34,966 nucleotides of DNA, from contig JBCNVN010000014.1 in assembly GCA_039630055.1 (NCBI GenBank), positions 1 to 34,966 on the forward strand, given 5' to 3'. Position numbers: made by a program. Shown piece by piece: positions 18,001 through 33,000 of this stretch. Numbering within the stretch: the first letter of the stretch is position 1; each line of letters starts with the position of its first letter. This DNA comes from Candidatus Caldarchaeales archaeon. Lineage in GTDB: Archaea > Thermoproteota > Nitrososphaeria_A > Caldarchaeales > Wolframiiraptoraceae.

Positions 18001-21000
18001 ACCAACTTCTACTCTTCTGTCTCACCTCTACTCCTCTCCATATTGATGGAGCCACCCACCAAGCTTTCAAAATACATTAAAACTCCGATAAAGATTGAGA
18101 AGCTTTTAGGTCTCAAGGTAGCTAAAGGCTACTCTTCTCTCATGTATATGCTCCATTTGTTGAGAGTCTTGAGAGAAGGAAGTCTCTGGACAGGGGTCAT
18201 AGTGCTGCTTTTCTTGATATTAGTGAATACGGCCATTCCAAGATTGGTAAATGTTGCCCAGTTCCCAGAAGTGGCTGAGCTGACTATGATAGCTCTATAC
18301 ATCCCCTTACTCCCAGCTCTCCTCTCGATAAACTGGAGTATCTCGGAAAGACCTAATACATGGATCGTCAATCTCTCTACTAAAGGTGAGAGATATTATC
18401 TATCCGGCCTCTTCTTCTCGTATCTCACAGTCACCTTCCCATTCTCTTTAAGCCTTTATGGAATCGTCTCCATTGGCTCCACTGACCTACCATTCATATT
18501 AGTTGATATAGTCTTGCTTCTCGCGATGTCATGTTTCGGGACAGCTCTCTCAATCCTTATCTCGCTAGTAGCGAAACTCGCACTCTCACCCCTCTCCCTC
18601 AGTTCCCTACTATATATCTTGACACCTTTAACAGGTTCATTGATCCTCTCGCTACCCATATTGACCATTAGATTGCATGAACCGCTTGCCAGTTCTCCGA
18701 CAATAGGTCTTACTAGCATGATGATAGGATACATCGTCATCACTACTTTCATCCTCTATAGGATACTGGTTAAGGAAGGTGTAAGATATCTCAATTAGAT
18801 ACTCAATCTTAGATGATTTCACAAGCAGCAGCATGTTTCGAGATATTGATAATTCCAAGAAAGGTTGTTAAGACTGGACAACGGGTTCAAAATTCTTGAC
18901 GTGACCATTTAAGAAGATCTCAGGTTATGTTAAACTATCTAGAAGAAGATGAACATATTCTCTTCAGATGATATGGATGTATCTTAAGACCGTGTCTGGG
19001 ATCAATGTCACGACTGTTCCTTTGCCAATCTTTTCAGCCATCCTCAAAGCTGCGTAGACATTTGCTCCCGCCGACAATCCGCCGAGTATGCCCTCCGAGA
19101 CTATAAGCTTCTTCATCATCTCCAGTGCATCCTGATAACTTACTTCAACCAGTTCGTCTATATATTCTCTATTCCGGGTCCATAGCTCTGGGACTACATC
19201 GACTGCCAGCCCCTCGATCCTATCAGGCTTACTTCCACCGATTATAGGCGAGTTTCTGGGGATGACCCCTACAATCCTCACCTTCTTACCGACCTTCTCT
19301 CTGAGGAATCTGCCAACGCCAGATATGGTTCCACATGTTCCTATACCCATCACAAATACATCTACATTATCTCCTAGTTGATCATATATTTCGGCTGCTG
19401 TAGTCTCGTAATGAGCTTTAACATTAGCCTCATTTGCATATTGATTTAGATAAAAGTAGCCATGTTCTTCAGCATATCTCTTCGCTACGGCCACATAGTT
19501 CCCAGGATCACTTGGAGGTTTAGAAGGTACCTCAATAAGCCTAGCTCCGAACGATTTTATCAGCTTCAACTTTGCAGGTGAAGCTTGTTCTTCCACGAAT
19601 ATCTCTGCTCTATAGCCTAAGATGGATGATGCCCATGCCACTGAGATAGCGGTGTTCCCGCTTGAGGCTTCAACGACAACATCCCCAGGTTTTATAAACC
19701 CTCTCAGCTCTGCTTCTCTAATCATATAGATTGCTATCCTATCTTTATGGCTCCCAGTGGGATTATAGTATTCAAGCTTCACATATATATCTGCTGCTCT
19801 ATCTTTAACGATTCTATGCACCTTGACAAGTGGGGTTCTTCCTATAAGATCAATAATCGACCGTCCCATATCTCGATGCCTATCCTCTGACAATCTACCG
19901 ACTTGAGAGATGATATAAATATTTAGAAGAGTCCATTTTCTTTACTTCACGCATGATATCGGATTTCTTAGAGGGTGTAGAGTTAATCTAGAAACGTTTT
20001 TATTTTTCTAAAGGTTTTAAGGCTTGCGGGAAAACTCTTGTAAATCATAAAGATTTGTAGAGAAGTTTCACTAAAACCTTCTAATAGACTTGTCTCCATT
20101 ATGAGACAGAATATTATGTTCTAATAGTTAATCAATATGATAGTATAGAATATTTTTAGAAAACTATCGGATAGACGCTATATACAATTATCAAGTTTGA
20201 TAATTAACCAATGAACTTATTTATGGAGTCTTCAATTATGAATCTTCTGATAATGGTATGGATTTAATGAATTCTGACTGGAAACTAAGCTCGGTTGCTA
20301 ACTCTACGTACTCTATTTGTTTAACTAGTTCTGTTGCCTCATCTCTGATCTTTTTTGAAAGAAGCATCATCTTAGCTCCCATACCTGCAGTGTTTCCGAC
20401 GAGCCTTACCTTATCCAAATCAAATTTTGGGAACATTCCTATCTTCATAGCAGATACAGGGTTGATGAAGAATCCAAATGTACCTGCAATGTATATTCTC
20501 TCAAGTTCCCCCTCATCCATCCTCACCTTCTTCAACAAGGTGTTGATACCTGTTCTAATAGCCGCTTTTGCAAGCTGTATCTCTCTTACATCTTTCTGAG
20601 TGATAACTATATCAACTCCTATCGTTGTCTCATCCCCATAAGCTATAACAAACTCAGGATATCCTTCCTCACCAATTCTCAGCCTTTTTGATCTCTCTTG
20701 ACAGAACTTCCCAGTTTTATCTATTATTCCTACATCATATAGTTCGGCGATTGTATCTATAACAGCCGACCCAGTCAGCCCCATCGGCTTTCCACCACCT
20801 ATCACAGTATAACTAACCTCACAATCATGGGATATCTCGACTCTATCTATTGCGCCTTTTGCAGCTCTCATCCCAAACTTTACATGTGCTCCCTCAAAGG
20901 CAGGTCCTGATGCTGTGGAACATGCTATGAATCTTCCATCAGTTCCGATTACTATCTCAGTATTGGTTCCTATATCTATTAGCATGGTTTTCAAACTTTC

Positions 21001-30000: not shown

Positions 30001-33000
30001 GGTATAGATAACCGCAACCTTAAGCTTTTTCATAGGTGTTGTCGACTGAGGCCCAGGGGAGAGAGTTACAAAATATCCAGCTACGACTGCAACAACAATT
30101 ATCACCGAGATAACTAATGCTAAAACCATTTTCGAGATTCCACACTTACCTTGAGATTCAATTCTTACCATATTCATCTAATCTACACTCTATTATATAA
30201 GATTGGTTTTACACGTTTATATAAAAAGAACACGATCTCGTAAAAACCGCATCCCCATATCGAAATCCTGCTATCAAATATGCCTAACTATAATCACCAA
30301 ATTCTACACTCTTTTTAGCATGCATTAGACCAGCTTTAGCACTGTCAAGCCAGTTTATGACCTCGTCTCTCATAGACATAGAACATCCATCCCTACGCAT
30401 AATGACATCAGCTCAGTTAAAATCTTACCATCACTGACGTGAGATAAGAACATATCGGGAAGGAAAACATGTTGTTTAAGTGTATTAGTATCAAAAGGCT
30501 ATCGAGCCGATATCTCTGATGGTAAAATCTTGAAGATAACAGATATTGGAGATTCGCCAAAAAATACCATTCTTTACCTAGTACAATATTTTCAGATAAC
30601 ATATCGGAGACCTCTAGCAAACCTTCTTTATACACGTCCAAGATACTATTGTGGCCTCAACCATAACATAATCGCTTGGTAGAACCCATCTTTCTATAGT
30701 TTAGATAATTGTATCACATATTAATTCATTTAATCCATGACCTCCTTCAACAACTTGTAAGATTGCAACCTGCTTATGATGAAGAATCTCATAAGACTCT
30801 TGGGTGATCTATAATATCACTCGTGATCAAATTATAGTTGACTGGAGATGGGGTTAGTCGGGTAGACTATGGCCAGAGCCGAGTCCAAAGTGTGGTCTAA
30901 GAGTAATACCATTGAAGAAGAGATATGAGGATATGCTCCATCTTTAAGTTCAGATGGTTCGATCCCTGAAGATTCACGGCCAAGCCATGTATACCACCAC
31001 ATCAATATCGCTAATAGTTAAGGATGTCATGCTGGAGAGATGGGCAGAATAAAGCATAATTAGGATTAGAACAATTTTAGGTTTGGAGTGAGCCGAGATG
31101 ACTTATATCGCTCATCTTGCAGATTTGCATTTAGGTTACAGACAATATGGATTGATAGAGAGGGAGGAGGATATCTATGAGACCTTTGATGAGGCAGTTG
31201 ATAAAATAATTGAAGAACATGCGAGGATAGTTATTATCGCAGGAGATTTATTTAATTCGGCTAGACCTCCTATCCGATCCCTCTATCATGTAAAATCAAA
31301 TCTTGAGAAGCTTAAGTCTAGAGGTATCAACGTTTTCTGTATTCTAGGAGACCATGATATACCGAGAAGAGTTGGCGAATACAGTCCATTAACTCTTTTC
31401 AGAGGAGACCTGCTTCACCACATAGATGGTAAGACTGTAGAGATTGAAATAGATGGAATACGTATCAAGATCACTGGGGTAGATAGAGCGCCATCCACAG
31501 CATCGGATAAAGTTCGTAAGATTATTGAGAAGCTTTCAAAGGATATACAGACAAAAGCTGGAACCGAGAGAAATATCTTGGTTACACACCTTCCTTTACA
31601 TGGCATTTCAGGTGAACTATGTATAGATGATCTGCCTGAAAACTATGATTACTATGCATTGGGACATGAACATGTGAGAAGAGTTTTCCGTAAGGGGTTG
31701 GGTCTGGCCTCATACCCTGGGTCCATAGATATTCTATCAAGAGATGAGATTATAGGGTGGAAGTTAGAAGGAAAAGGTTTTTATCTAGTAGACCTTTCAG
31801 GTTCTGAACCTATAGTTGAGAAGGTGGACTTAAAGTCTATAAGACCACAAGAGATCTTTGAGATAAGCCTTGGAGAGCCTATAGATAAGCTGGTCGATTG
31901 GATTACTCATCAGAGTAAGAAGCCGATCCTTCATCTTCTAATAAAAGATCGAGAATTCGATTTAAGAAGAATAAATGAGATTGCTGAAAAATTACGAGGA
32001 ATAGGCTGCCTCGATGTCAGATATAGGAGAAAAATCTTTAGAGAGGACGATCAATTTAAAGCACTTCCACACATCGATCATTCACGATTCAATATTATAG
32101 ATCTTATAAAGACGAGTATTATGGAGATCGGTTTATCCGAAGAAGAGGCTGAATTAGCAATAAATATCTATAAAGAGTTCCGCACTGGAGGAGGAGATGC
32201 TCTCAAAGAGTTATTACTTAGAAGATCTCCAGAGGGATAAGTAGATGATTATTAGAGAAGTTTATCTAAATAATTTTATCTCATACGAAGAGGCGGTTGT
32301 GAAATTCCCTATAGGGGTGACAGTTATAGTTGGAGAGAACGGTGCAGGGAAGACAGCCATACTAGATGCGATAACTTATGCACTCTTCAAAGAACATAGT
32401 AGAGGTAGAGATGAAAACCTGATAAGAAGACGTATGAACAACTCAAAGATCAAGCTTAGATTCTCTGTTAGAGGGAAAAACTTTGAGGTCGAATGGAATC
32501 TCTCAAGAGGCAGGTCTCCTATAGGAAACCTAAAAGATTTAGATGAGGGATATTCTTTGGTTAGGCCTGGGTCGGGAGAGAGAACCATCATCCCGGAGAT
32601 AGCCAAGTTAACAGGATTAGATAAAGAAGTCTTCATCAATGCAATCTATGTTAAGCAAGGAGAGATCGCTAAGTTTCTAGATGCTAAACCCTCTGAAAGA
32701 AAGAAGATAATTGGACAACTATTGGGAATAGAGGAGTTAGAGAAGATATGGGAAGCTATGAGAGACCCTCTCAAGGATCTGGAAGCCAAGGTAGAAAGCT
32801 ATGCTTTAGAAGTTGAGAGGATAGAAGTTGAGAGGAGAAGGATTCAAGAAGAGTTGGAGACCCTATCAAAGAAACAAGATCAACTTAGAGAGATAGAGTC
32901 TGAGAAGGCGAAGCTTAGAGAAGAGATAGAAGATTTAAGAAGAAAGATCGATAAGCTTGAAGAAAAGAGGAAGAGATGGAGTGAATTAGAAAGCCTTATC

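Follow-up and report, generated by a model that had tools for sequence, protein, structure and literature searches.

A possible importer-coupled, corrinoid-dependent methyl-capture module in a hot-spring archaeon of the Caldarchaeales

A hot-spring archaeon of the Caldarchaeales (Wolframiiraptoraceae; assembly GCA_039630055.1) keeps an intact gene set for methyl import and for the loading of a B12 protein without a known methyltransferase for the onward step. From which compound could the methyl group come, and to which acceptor could it go? These questions arise from the window, the stretch of 34,966 nt of contig JBCNVN010000014.1 analysed here. The preferred explanation, held tentatively and with somewhat less than even confidence, is an importer-coupled, corrinoid-dependent methyl-capture module. 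For substrate, direction of MtaB and acceptor, we infer the following. A Bmp/CUT2 ABC transporter would import a methylated nitrogen compound, and a pyrrolysine-free, His-type MtmB homolog would move its methyl group to the Co(I) of a single methylamine-type corrinoid protein (CP). MtaB would load the same CP from methanol, and RACo would re-reduce cofactor slipped to Co(II). The methyl sink would be homocysteine, via the catalytic subunit of a split MetE. The module would have entered a sublineage of the genus long ago, by lateral exchange with a Terraquivivens-like lineage, and would have been functional ever since.

Gene content and enzymes of the module

The eight-gene set at 20236–30177 (Table 1) is real, intact and single-copy in ORF, profile and genome searches, and its ORFs and families are those given in the initial annotation. 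The RACo gene is divergent from the CP gene, MtaB starts 1 nt past the stop codon of the MtmB homolog, and permease 2 overlaps permease 1 by 4 nt. Comparison with locus L005 (dS 0.27–0.39) yields dN/dS values of 0.03–0.14 for all eight genes, with 0.029 for the MtmB homolog and 0.137 for RACo. Thus, all eight are under purifying selection and the module is functional.

Table 1. Genes of the module and of its left flank (window positions)
Feature	Position	Strand	Family or remark
ABC ATPase and 505-aa ORF (no family match)	16541..18798	+	left part of GC-rich zone
CysK/CBS-like PLP enzyme, adjoins RACo	18964..19893	-	PALP
RACo	20236..22077	-	Pfam Fer2, Raco_middle, RACo_C_ter
Corrinoid protein (CP)	22132..22821	+	Pfam B12-binding_2, B12-binding
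MtmB homolog	22832..24214	+	PF05369, 2.4e-81, 274 bits; without internal stop
MtaB	24216..25574	+	PF12176, 6.7e-159, 530 bits
ABC permease 1, CUT2 type	25580..26518	-	BPD_transp_2
ABC permease 2, CUT2 type	26515..27558	-	BPD_transp_2
ABC ATPase, two nucleotide-binding domains	27567..29063	-	ABC_tran, two stretches
Bmp-family substrate-binding protein (SBP)	29101..30177	-	PF02608

With its 2Fe-2S ferredoxin, middle and ASKHA ATPase domains, RACo is of the reductive activase type for corrinoid proteins; it reaches 448.6 bits against NCBIfam AcsV, under the cut-off of 800. The CP, the sole one detected in the genome (one tblastn match), scores under the cut-offs of all NCBIfam models matched, i.e. 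MtgC (194.7 bits), pyl_corrinoid (180.9), MtbC (164.8) and MtaC (118–123), and by this ranking is of the methylamine and not of the MtaC type. The late cobamide assembly genes CobS and CbiB are not found in the genome; therefore, the cofactor must be scavenged, a point against the module as proposed.

The MtmB homolog resembles MtmB of Methanosarcina barkeri (1NTH, 1L2Q) over its full length (1.9e-55, residues 7–456), including the GRPGM motif ahead of the key position. In contrast to that enzyme, it has no UAG/pyrrolysine. His200, a CAT codon at 23429–23431, stands opposite X at residue 202 of the M. barkeri chains; alignment and codon reading both agree with the His noticed earlier. Since His200 replaces pyrrolysine, monomethylamine is not an expected substrate. 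Homologs of this type form a His clade (tree support 100), and the protein is a putative first methyltransferase (MT1) for the imported methyl donor. MtaB aligns with MtaBC (2I2X) over its whole length (401 bits), with E, C and C opposite chain residues 164, 220 and 269, which we take to be the zinc ligands. Unlike MtaBC, it falls under the equivalog cut-off of NCBIfam MtaB_Meth (519 versus 720 bits), belongs to a separate clade of module-linked MtaBs (support 99) co-inherited with the His-type MtmB homolog, and has neither an MtaC-type partner nor MtaA in this genome. Adjacency of MtaB is confined to the His clade; in the Phe-type sister locus, the importer is the same but MtaB is absent.

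A close known system, compared by description and not by sequence, is MtqB/MtqC of Methanococcoides methylutens Q3c. MtqB, described as the first non-Pyl MtmB to be characterised, transfers methyl groups of tetramethylammonium and choline to its cognate corrinoid protein; it too is a Pyl-free PF05369 member beside a methylamine-type CP, and acts as a substrate-specific first methyltransferase (PMC13044021). The present host, however, is not a methanogen and lacks MtbA/MtaA, and its gene carries His at the pyrrolysine position, lies in an operon with MtaB and is coupled to a Bmp-type ABC importer. Pyl-free members of the MttB superfamily (MtgB and relatives) have, in the available accounts, diversified to other methylated amines, with a CP alongside and often a transporter too, but they belong to a different fold family.

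Binding protein and candidate methyl donor

The nearest solved chains of the SBP are the Bmp-family purine-base binders AtzT (6PI5, 168 bits; also 6PI6) and 3S99 (139 bits), the former described with guanine and 2-hydroxyatrazine and the latter with adenine (PMC6834077). Placed by sequence alignment to AtzT and not from structure, the pocket residues are W66, N67, H114, S115, W116, D186, L190, W215, Y237, E239 and Y241. The stacking Trp (W194 in AtzT, W215 here), a Ser (Ser97/S115) and an acidic residue (Glu165/D186) are kept, whereas Asn169, Asn218 and Asn220 are replaced by Leu, Glu and Tyr. AtzT Tyr45 lies opposite Asn67, which Trp66 adjoins, and relative to AtzT the pocket gains the aromatics W66, W155, Y237 and Y241 together with Glu239. 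Because the guanine-reading Asn residues are replaced, the ligand is not plain guanine. The signature WNHSWDLWYE[Y/F] is unchanged among SBPs of 45 to 100% identity, and eight alignment-mapped contact positions are invariant, against roughly one column in four overall; the signature differs in the three Bmp paralogs encoded elsewhere in the genome. The closeness of the SBP to purine-base binders, the invariant pocket signature and its linkage to MtmB are new here.

An N-methylated purine-like (amino-heteroaromatic) base leads the ligand candidates. Such a donor is disfavoured by the substrates known for the MtmB family, which are described in PMC13044021 as small amines and not heterocycles. 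In locus L064, housekeeping-like ArgF-like and ThrC genes stand between the importer and both the purine PRT and the deaminase, so that this adjacency may be chance. The main alternative candidate is a small methylammonium compound. An ordinary methylamine or quaternary-amine module would import monomethylamine, choline, tetramethylammonium or a similar small cation, the Trp/Tyr/acidic-rich pocket being a cation-π cage and the MtmB homolog MtqB-like; only the substrate would differ from the preferred explanation. This is possible, if rather unlikely. It is favoured by the MtqB precedent, by the aromatic and Glu239 gains, by the rarity of in-frame TAG (only 3 PF05369 matches among the matches listed for 55 genomes of the phylum sample) and by a cultured methyl-reducing methanogen of the phylum, an isolate not tied to the genomes sampled here, that is reported to use monomethylamine (PMC12244365). 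Yet monomethylamine activation is held to need pyrrolysine (PMC13044021), and the closest solved relatives of the SBP bind purine bases with a stacking pair that is kept here. Moreover, amino-heteroaromatic deaminases flank related triads: a Hadarchaeota locus holds two triads of a TRZ/ATZ/DadD-like amidohydrolase, Bmp and an MtmB homolog. Quaternary-amine importers known so far belong to other SBP classes. TatD adjoins the SBP in 3/3 f12-type loci examined, which likewise favours a purine-like ligand.

Fate of the methyl group

URO-D, MtrH and MCR_alpha have no match in this 91.9%-complete genome, which bears out the earlier statement that known methyl-corrinoid acceptor methyltransferases and MCR are missing; S-methyl_trans, CdhD, MTHFR and MTTB (PF06253), also without match, extend the list. 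Pterin_bind is a broken frame on contig C11 and has no match in G012. None of the eight genomes of the genus, including the module carrier G012 (95% complete) and four others 94–97% complete, has a URO-D match above the family cut-off. Such a family match occurs in 42 of the 47 MtaB-bearing genomes sampled in the phylum, and all seven Terraquivivens genomes have an MtaA-like URO-D gene. The gap at the second methyltransferase is a peculiarity of this genus.

The host is without a C1 oxidation route. With neither this route, MCR nor any second methyltransferase of a known type, the cell most probably assimilates the methyl group instead of gaining energy from it. As a sink, the split MetE found in this genome is the strongest candidate. 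It is favoured by the description of characterised core methionine synthases as using methylcobalamin in vitro; against it, Price et al. predict methyl-pterins, not corrinoid proteins, for split MetE (both PMC7857596). The split MetE and the MtaA-like gene of Terraquivivens are both added here as corrections to the earlier picture.

A comparable situation is described for Brockarchaeota, non-methanogenic hot-spring TACK archaea with MtaB and a CP and no recognised second methyltransferase, for which transfer to tetrahydrofolate is proposed (PMC8065059). In the present genome, by contrast, there is no MTHFR or intact pterin-binding gene, and the set is extended by the MtmB homolog and the importer. 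In the same report, Brockarchaeota are described as the only TACK archaea with the methanol system, yet PF12176 has matches in 47 of the 401 genomes sampled in this phylum.

MtaB might instead unload the CP, passing the methyl group to water (as methanol) or to another small nucleophile. The MtmB homolog, CP and MtaB would then constitute a complete demethylase, leaving the cell with the demethylated skeleton and with no need for a C1 carrier. Two TIM-barrel methyltransferases around one CP, with genes 1 nt apart, recall the classic MT1-CP-MT2 layout; the CP type, the restriction of MtaB adjacency to the His clade and the purifying selection in a genus without URO-D match above cut-off point the same way. 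The reading is nevertheless improbable: the presumed zinc ligands and the overall resemblance to the methanol enzyme are retained in full, the His clade, being one evolutionary event, adds only one instance of the association, and Terraquivivens has its MtaA-like gene. Furthermore, the hydrolysis of methylamine to methanol is uphill at standard conditions (roughly +20 kJ/mol) and could proceed only at very low methanol or with an activated donor. It is quite unlikely, too, that a second methyltransferase was missed, in the unassembled 8% or in an unrecognised family, and performs conventional methylotrophic transfer to a thiol or pterin. The incompleteness of the MAG and the frequency of URO-D in the phylum speak for this idea, as do the Brockarchaeota, also without MtaA, for which an undescribed protein is proposed (PMC8065059). 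Against it stand the eight genomes of the genus with no URO-D match above cut-off, five of them 94–97% complete, the further families without match and the degraded Pterin_bind.

Importer–MtmB coupling and origin of the module

A search by SBP similarity alone yielded 31 metagenome loci with the invariant signature. Of these, 24 carry MtmB-family genes; six of the other seven are truncated by contig ends, which leaves one real exception. The sole long locus with a different SBP signature has no MtmB gene. The same SBP type adjoins MtmB-family and CP genes in f1, f54, f7 and the MCR-bearing f12, with MtmB identity down to about 30% in the last, and signature loci in MCR-bearing genomes include tandem MtmB pairs. 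Adjacency persists down to 45% SBP identity, in various gene orders and in no fewer than four MtmB subclades, although these loci are kin and the counts overstate independent events. The importer is thus coupled to MtmB and, since signature loci carry MtmB-family genes across such divergence, most likely supplies the methyl donor; its presence beside related enzymes in MCR-bearing relatives points to an unrecognised methyl source. An importer for purine or cofactor-base salvage, sharing only neighbourhood or regulator with the methyl-transfer genes, is very unlikely. In its favour, Bmp-family importers are general salvage systems with three other loci in this genome, L010 and L011 have RACo, CP, MtmB homolog and MtaB without importer nearby, and L075 has a signature SBP without MtmB gene within 9 kb; against it, the adjacency holds at great divergence and the contact positions are invariant.

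The module is found in 1/7 other genomes of the genus, 5/7 in g4 and 0/20 in g2, g3 and g5, which reproduces the patchiness reported at first. CP, MtmB homolog and MtaB are contiguous in 8/9 genome loci. That the eight genes travel together holds in part: synteny is shared and all eight are detected in 5/9 loci at the thresholds used, but L009, labelled Methanomethylicia, has seven, with no RACo match of at least 60% coverage. L009 and a locus in genome G359, where MCR_alpha has no match, appear to be identical.

The span has a GC content of 0.441 on recomputation (initially 0.447), which ranks among the highest 0.8% of 1099 windows of equal size. The GC-rich zone begins near 16.5 kb and also covers the ABC ATPase, the 505-aa ORF and the CysK-like gene. 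In 10/14 related loci (host GC 0.29 to 0.64), module GC exceeds that of its own flanks, by up to 6.5 points. Because this excess recurs in varied hosts, it belongs to the genes and is rejected as the mark of a donor; ‘compositionally foreign’, as argued in the initial annotation, is not supported. Horizontal transfer loses this argument and still appears likely, as exchange with Terraquivivens, on identity contrast, distribution and tree. Module proteins are 53–87% identical to Terraquivivens counterparts (permease 1, 65–74%), whereas 35 flanking ORFs of g4 loci show a median identity of 40% and a maximum of 65% to this genome. In a concatenated tree, the order of branching between the own-genus clade and two Terraquivivens clades is unresolved (three-way split). 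As dS versus g4 is saturated, the exchange would be old.

The CysK-like gene is probably a variable-region neighbour outside the module. Only the two module-carrying genomes of the genus have it (88% identical in G012), other congeners having only a 28–32% identical paralog, and its nearest relatives (60–73% identical) lie in module-free g5. The G012 contig also carries the 3′ part of the ABC ATPase/505-aa ORF pair.

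Gene content of the module

The most useful feature of the module, absent from the initial annotation, is an importer with an invariant binding pocket that travels with pyrrolysine-free homologs of the methyltransferase MtmB in methanogens and non-methanogens. What that annotation observed is confirmed as a whole, each of its gene families being borne out by Pfam and NCBIfam, and its interpretation finds support in part. The window is all of contig C6 of a 1.54 Mb genome (G000; 80 contigs, 91.9% complete), and the module consists of eight intact ORFs arranged as two convergent groups and one divergent gene. 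RACo, the corrinoid protein (CP), the MtmB homolog and MtaB occur once each in the genome, together with three further Bmp-type loci.

RACo possesses the Fe-S domain, the RACo middle domain and the ASKHA ATPase domain, with scores under the curated cut-offs for AcsV and RamA. With NCBIfam, the CP reaches 165-195 bits for MtgC, pyl_corrinoid and MtbC, compared with 118-123 bits for the MtaC models, and is therefore a methylamine-type carrier. According to Pfam, the Bmp binding protein (SBP), encoded at 29101-30177, forms a Bmp/PnrA-like importer set with a double ATPase and a pair of BPD_transp_2 permeases. Comparison of the module of G000 with that of the other carrier in the genus gives dN/dS of 0.03-0.14 for all eight genes (dS 0.27-0.39), the strongest constraint being on the MtmB homolog (0.029). 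Scans with sigma-70 and terminator models, which are not applicable to archaea, gave site numbers no higher than in shuffled sequences. Among corrinoid methyltransferase systems the module is a variant not seen before, and it differs from the mlp gene clusters as presented in the accessible sections of PMC10418091.

Positions of the module and of other features discussed in the text
Feature	Location	Strand	Remark
Eight-gene module	C6:20236-30177		
RACo gene		-	divergent to the CP gene
CP, then MtmB homolog, then MtaB genes		+	MtaB start 1 nt past the MtmB homolog stop
His200 codon (CAT) of the MtmB homolog	C6:23429-23431		
Bmp binding protein, double ATPase and two permease genes		-	convergent to the CP, MtmB homolog and MtaB genes; 4-nt permease overlap
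Type III CRISPR-Cas effector locus	C6:2320-16004		
Cas6 stretch	C6:15152-15995		
Intergenic stretch	C6:30253-30983		between the Bmp gene and Mre11
Mre11-Rad50 pair	C6:31098-34671		
Pterin_bind frame	C11:21463-21993 (L003, L004)		G000; TGA and TAG inside
MtaA/CmuA-like URO-D gene, Terraquivivens G018	L052:3946-4968		apart from the module
MtaA/CmuA-like URO-D gene, Terraquivivens G019	L053:6775-7797		apart from the module
Cas12f1-like TNB-domain gene, Terraquivivens	L012:20162-20911		
Cas12f1-like TNB-domain gene, f12-type metagenome	L080:5815-6969		
Hadarchaeota contig	L013:1-12759		

Pyrrolysine-free MtmB homologs and their importer

The MtmB homolog shows the PF05369 fold over its full length (274 bits, residues 4-456) and aligns from end to end with the M. 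barkeri MtmB chain 1L2Q (1.9e-55). As first reported, a histidine occupies the pyrrolysine position, His200 standing opposite X at residue 202 of 1L2Q; an in-frame UAG is absent from this position and the ORF is uninterrupted, so that the protein is not MtmB sensu stricto. It is a non-pyrrolysine member of PF05369 adjoining its cognate CP gene and fits, on gene content, the group containing MtqB. In the phylum, the CP adjoins an MtmB-family gene in 16 of 20 loci; PF05369 is matched in 55 of the 401 genomes sampled, with an in-frame TAG in only three among the matches listed. Among the 120 database homologs listed, the aligned position is His in 39, including all 37 with at least 67% identity; in the next-closest it is Phe, Trp or Tyr, and among more distant homologs any residue may stand there. 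In the tree, the His-type proteins form one clade (support 100), every member of which has an adjoining MtaB.

MtqB of Methanococcoides, which demethylates tetramethylammonium and choline, gave in 2026 the first function for any non-pyrrolysine MtmB, and the remaining family is termed ‘of unknown function’ in the accessible sections of the same report (PMC13044021). Pyrrolysine-free homologs are widespread, yet MtqB is the sole member whose function has been demonstrated. Literature searches on MtmB in Caldarchaeales, which left the Bmp-MtmB pairing outside their scope, returned no publication. PMC9246946 and PMC6053391, whose supplements may name these genes, contain no terms for methyl transfer in their main texts, and the accessible sections of the Brockarchaeota paper (PMC8065059) do not attribute MtaB to Aigarchaeota.

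Other surroundings of pyrrolysine-free homologs are seen in two families. In f22 (L023 and L024) they adjoin a fused gene for Fae-Hps (formaldehyde-activating enzyme/hexulose-phosphate synthase), and an MFS carrier or ABC importers of the polyamine type also stand beside them, a further and distinct context for these homologs. In f4, a family of the taxonomic order to which the host of the window belongs, two loci (L014 and L015) hold a CP-MtmB homolog pair with Ile at the pyrrolysine position, preceded by a radical SAM gene and an ECF-type transporter set (CbiQ-like T component and double ATPase).

In families f12, f7 and f54, a CP and a Bmp/CUT2 importer of the same kind also stand beside MtmB homologs that share about 30% identity with that of the window. 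The three f12 genomes, which have MCR_alpha, carry a tandem MtmB pair in place of the MtmB homolog and MtaB; the f7 locus additionally encodes RACo, a CysK-like protein and an MtaA-like URO-D protein, and MCR_alpha has no match in the f7 and f54 genomes. The signature WNHSWDLWYE[Y/F] combines pocket positions mapped from the solved binding protein AtzT with the neighbours H114, W116 and Y237; it is identical across all module-linked SBPs and different in the three Bmp paralogs of the genome and in Hadarchaeota SBPs. In an alignment of eight SBPs, about one-quarter of the columns are invariant, as are eight of eight mapped positions, the ninth being Y or F.

An independent test relied on a search of metagenome contigs with the SBP alignment alone, which returned 35 loci. 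The signature is present in 31 of them, at 45-81% identity to the query, and 24 of these 31 contain an MtmB-family gene. Six others end at a contig edge where the MtmB gene is expected, one of them showing a CP at the edge. L075, with 9-kb flanks, has the signature and lacks an MtmB gene; among the remaining long loci this gene is missing from L086 alone, whose signature differs. Many of the 24 loci are kin and therefore do not represent 24 independent events. The MtmB types found beside the same pocket are His-type with MtaB, single Phe-type, and tandem Asn and Ile/Leu pairs. Kinship notwithstanding, the link between importer and MtmB persists in at least four subclades of MtmB and in several arrangements of the genes. 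The invariant SBP thus offers a direct experimental handle on the substrate of these MtmB-family enzymes, since identification of its ligand would reveal the methyl donor. Cas12f1-like TNB-domain genes (TnpB-type) lie no more than a few kb from the module in one Terraquivivens locus and one f12-type metagenome locus.

Concerning the ligand, the nearest solved chains to the SBP are purine-base binders (AtzT, 168 bits; 3S99, 139 bits), compared with 24-64 bits for nucleoside binders such as PnrA and BmpD. The ligands of the nearest solved proteins are guanine, adenine and 2-hydroxyatrazine, an N-alkylated amino-triazine. The accessible sections of PMC6834077 give Tyr45, Ser97, Glu165, Asn169, Trp194, Asn218 and Asn220 as guanine contacts of AtzT. 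By alignment, Ser97 and Trp194 are kept as S115 and W215, and the acidic character of Glu165 as D186; Asn169, Asn218 and Asn220 correspond to L190, E239 and Y241, and Tyr45 is opposite N67, with W66 adjoining. The Hadarchaeota contig contains two triads of amidohydrolase, Bmp protein and non-pyrrolysine MtmB homolog, with no CP detected in the locus; its amidohydrolases score best, under cut-offs, on 5'-deoxyadenosine deaminase and TRZ/ATZ models. This contig also carries a class-III aminotransferase gene and, at its end, a DDE transposase fragment. TatD adjoins the SBP gene in three f12-type loci. Genes for a purine phosphoribosyltransferase and a DadD-like deaminase lie 3' of the Phe-type cluster, an adjacency of little weight because ArgF-like and ThrC genes separate them from the importer.

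Taken together, the ligands of the solved proteins, the Hadarchaeota triads and TatD point to a flat, nitrogen-rich, methyl-bearing ring. Judged from sequence, the imported compound could be a methylated purine-like base, an assignment that is tentative and falls somewhat short of an even chance. A small methylamine is possible as well, if rather less than probable: small amines are the only substrates known for the MtmB family, and the additional aromatic and acidic residues of the pocket would also fit a methylammonium ion. That the compound is neither of these is unlikely, without being far-fetched. Starting from the methylated purine-like base, it is tempting to propose, as a doubtful extension, that the MtmB-family enzymes beside the invariant-pocket importer might catalyse the corrinoid-dependent N-demethylation of modified bases of the purine type, for instance methylated adenines and guanines from RNA and DNA breakdown. 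Such demethylation would be an anaerobic route new to description. In the MCR-bearing family with tandem MtmB pairs, modified nucleobases would then be a substrate of methyl-reducing methanogenesis; in the Caldarchaeales genus under study, with neither MT2 (a second methyltransferase) nor a C1 pathway nor genes of cobamide synthesis, the base would be freed for salvage and the methyl group passed to methionine or discarded via MtaB. A methylated base, or another overlooked compound, as ligand would add to the sources from which methane arises in hot springs and oil reservoirs.

Fate of the methyl group

MtaB matches PF12176 over its full length (530 bits) and the 2I2X chain with 401 bits, and has E, C and C opposite residues 164, 220 and 269 of the latter, which are the zinc ligands. 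Its score on the NCBIfam equivalog (519.3 bits) does not reach the cut-off of 720. Neither an MtaC-type CP, the sole CP being methylamine-type, nor MtaA (URO-D has no match) accompanies it in G000. Elsewhere in the phylum, MtaB belongs to RACo-MtaB-CP sets, with both CP and RACo in 8 of 14 loci and an MtmB homolog in none of the 14, and the module-linked MtaBs form a separate clade (support 99). In its simplest role, MtaB would be a second loader of the shared CP, from methanol. Alternatively, it might unload the CP to water or another small nucleophile, making the MtmB homolog, CP and MtaB a self-contained demethylase; this matches the layout of first methyltransferase (MT1), CP and second methyltransferase (MT2) and the lack of any further acceptor, but the conserved methanol-type site and thermodynamics speak against it.

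The earlier claim that the genome lacks any known acceptor methyltransferase and MCR holds: URO-D, MtrH and MCR_alpha have no match in G000 (91.9% complete), nor do S-methyl_trans, CdhD, MTHFR and MTTB, and the only Pterin_bind frame is broken. A complete MT1-CP-MT2 system is thus not found in this genome, there being no MT2 of the URO-D/MtaA, MtrH or intact pterin-binding type. The gap is no accident of a single MAG. URO-D exceeds the cut-off in none of the eight genomes of the genus, including the other module carrier, G012 (95% complete). The degraded Pterin_bind frame, the sole copy in G000, is syntenic with an intact 289-aa gene in the congener G008, between phosphoribosyltransferase and CDP-alcohol transferase genes; four module-free congeners in all retain an intact copy there, and G012 has no match. 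Together with the absent MTHFR, the broken frame hints at a loss of pterin-dependent C1 metabolism.

The MT2 gap is peculiar to this genus. All seven Terraquivivens genomes, including two without the module, encode a URO-D protein scoring best on MtaA/methylcobalamin:CoM models, at 207-213 bits on MtaA-type models, under cut-offs, and at 44-49 bits on hemE. This MtaA-like gene stands between an ornithine cyclodeaminase-like gene and genes for zinc-/iron-type alcohol dehydrogenases. In the phylum sample, a URO-D family match is found in 42 of 47 MtaB-bearing genomes. Despite the gap, the low dN/dS of the eight genes indicates that the module works without a known MT2. The genus sharpens the missing-MT2 problem first raised for Brockarchaeota: the module is under purifying selection with no known acceptor enzyme at all.

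G000 has a split MetE, encoded by two overlapping genes on C4 at about 35000-37080. According to the accessible sections of PMC7857596, characterised core methionine synthases take methyl from methylcobalamin in vitro, although the donors that Price et al. predict for the split form are methyl-pterins. Assimilation of the methyl group into methionine via split MetE would be the most economical reading, because a route of C1 oxidation is lacking. For cobamide assembly, neither CobS nor CobD/CbiB is matched in G000, so that cobamide must be imported; the organism probably cannot finish cobamide synthesis, yet retains the CP under selection.

Origin and surroundings of the module

The module was initially described as compositionally foreign and laterally acquired. 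The GC excess itself is real (0.441 versus 0.394, top 0.8% of windows), with the GC-rich zone starting at 16.5 kb, outside the module. Module GC exceeds that of its own flanks in 10 of 14 related loci, in hosts with GC from 0.29 to 0.64, which rules out GC as a mark of foreign origin. The patchy distribution is borne out and counts toward lateral exchange. Module proteins are 53-87% identical to those of Terraquivivens; 35 of 62 flanking Terraquivivens ORFs found a partner in G000, with a median identity of 40% and a maximum of 65% in a small and redundant sample. In the concatenated tree, the own-genus pair and two metagenome loci make up one arm of an unresolved trichotomy, the other two arms being Terraquivivens clades. 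Lateral exchange with Terraquivivens is thus better supported by distribution, identities and tree than by GC.

Mis-binning of the contig is ruled out. The Cas6 region is 67-76% identical in DNA to six module-free congeners, and two hot-spring runs from a single study give an even summed contig depth over the island, with a dip at 30.3-31.0 kb; no contig among those listed from these runs spans all of 15000-34966. The island borders show no tRNA, Rfam match, convincing flanking repeat or integrase; since congeners yielded no Mre11, the border on the right is left undefined. In the intergenic stretch between the Bmp gene and Mre11, where contig depth dips, two segments, each about 150 nt long, recur as 73-79% copies on C22 and C33 of G000, and one contig of run X2 departs from the sequence past 30253. 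This stretch might represent a small repeat element, or else a junction on the right-hand edge of the island that varies between strains.

The CysK-like neighbour of the module is rejected as a component: its nearest relatives (60-73% identity) belong to the module-free group g5, and Terraquivivens has only paralogs at 36-39%. Within the genus, the gene is confined to the two module-bearing genomes; a CysK-like gene adjoins RACo in L026 too, an adjacency that is probably due to chance. The type III CRISPR-Cas locus comprises genes for six RAMP proteins, Cas10 with an HD domain, Csx1 (CARF-HEPN), Cas_APE2256 and Cas6, and only its Cas6 stretch matches congeners at the DNA level. The Mre11-Rad50 pair scores under the cut-offs of Sulfolobus-type models. 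This Mre11 has no match at E<=1e-20 in the seven other genomes of the genus; a second copy, accessory or strongly diverged, is one possible reading.
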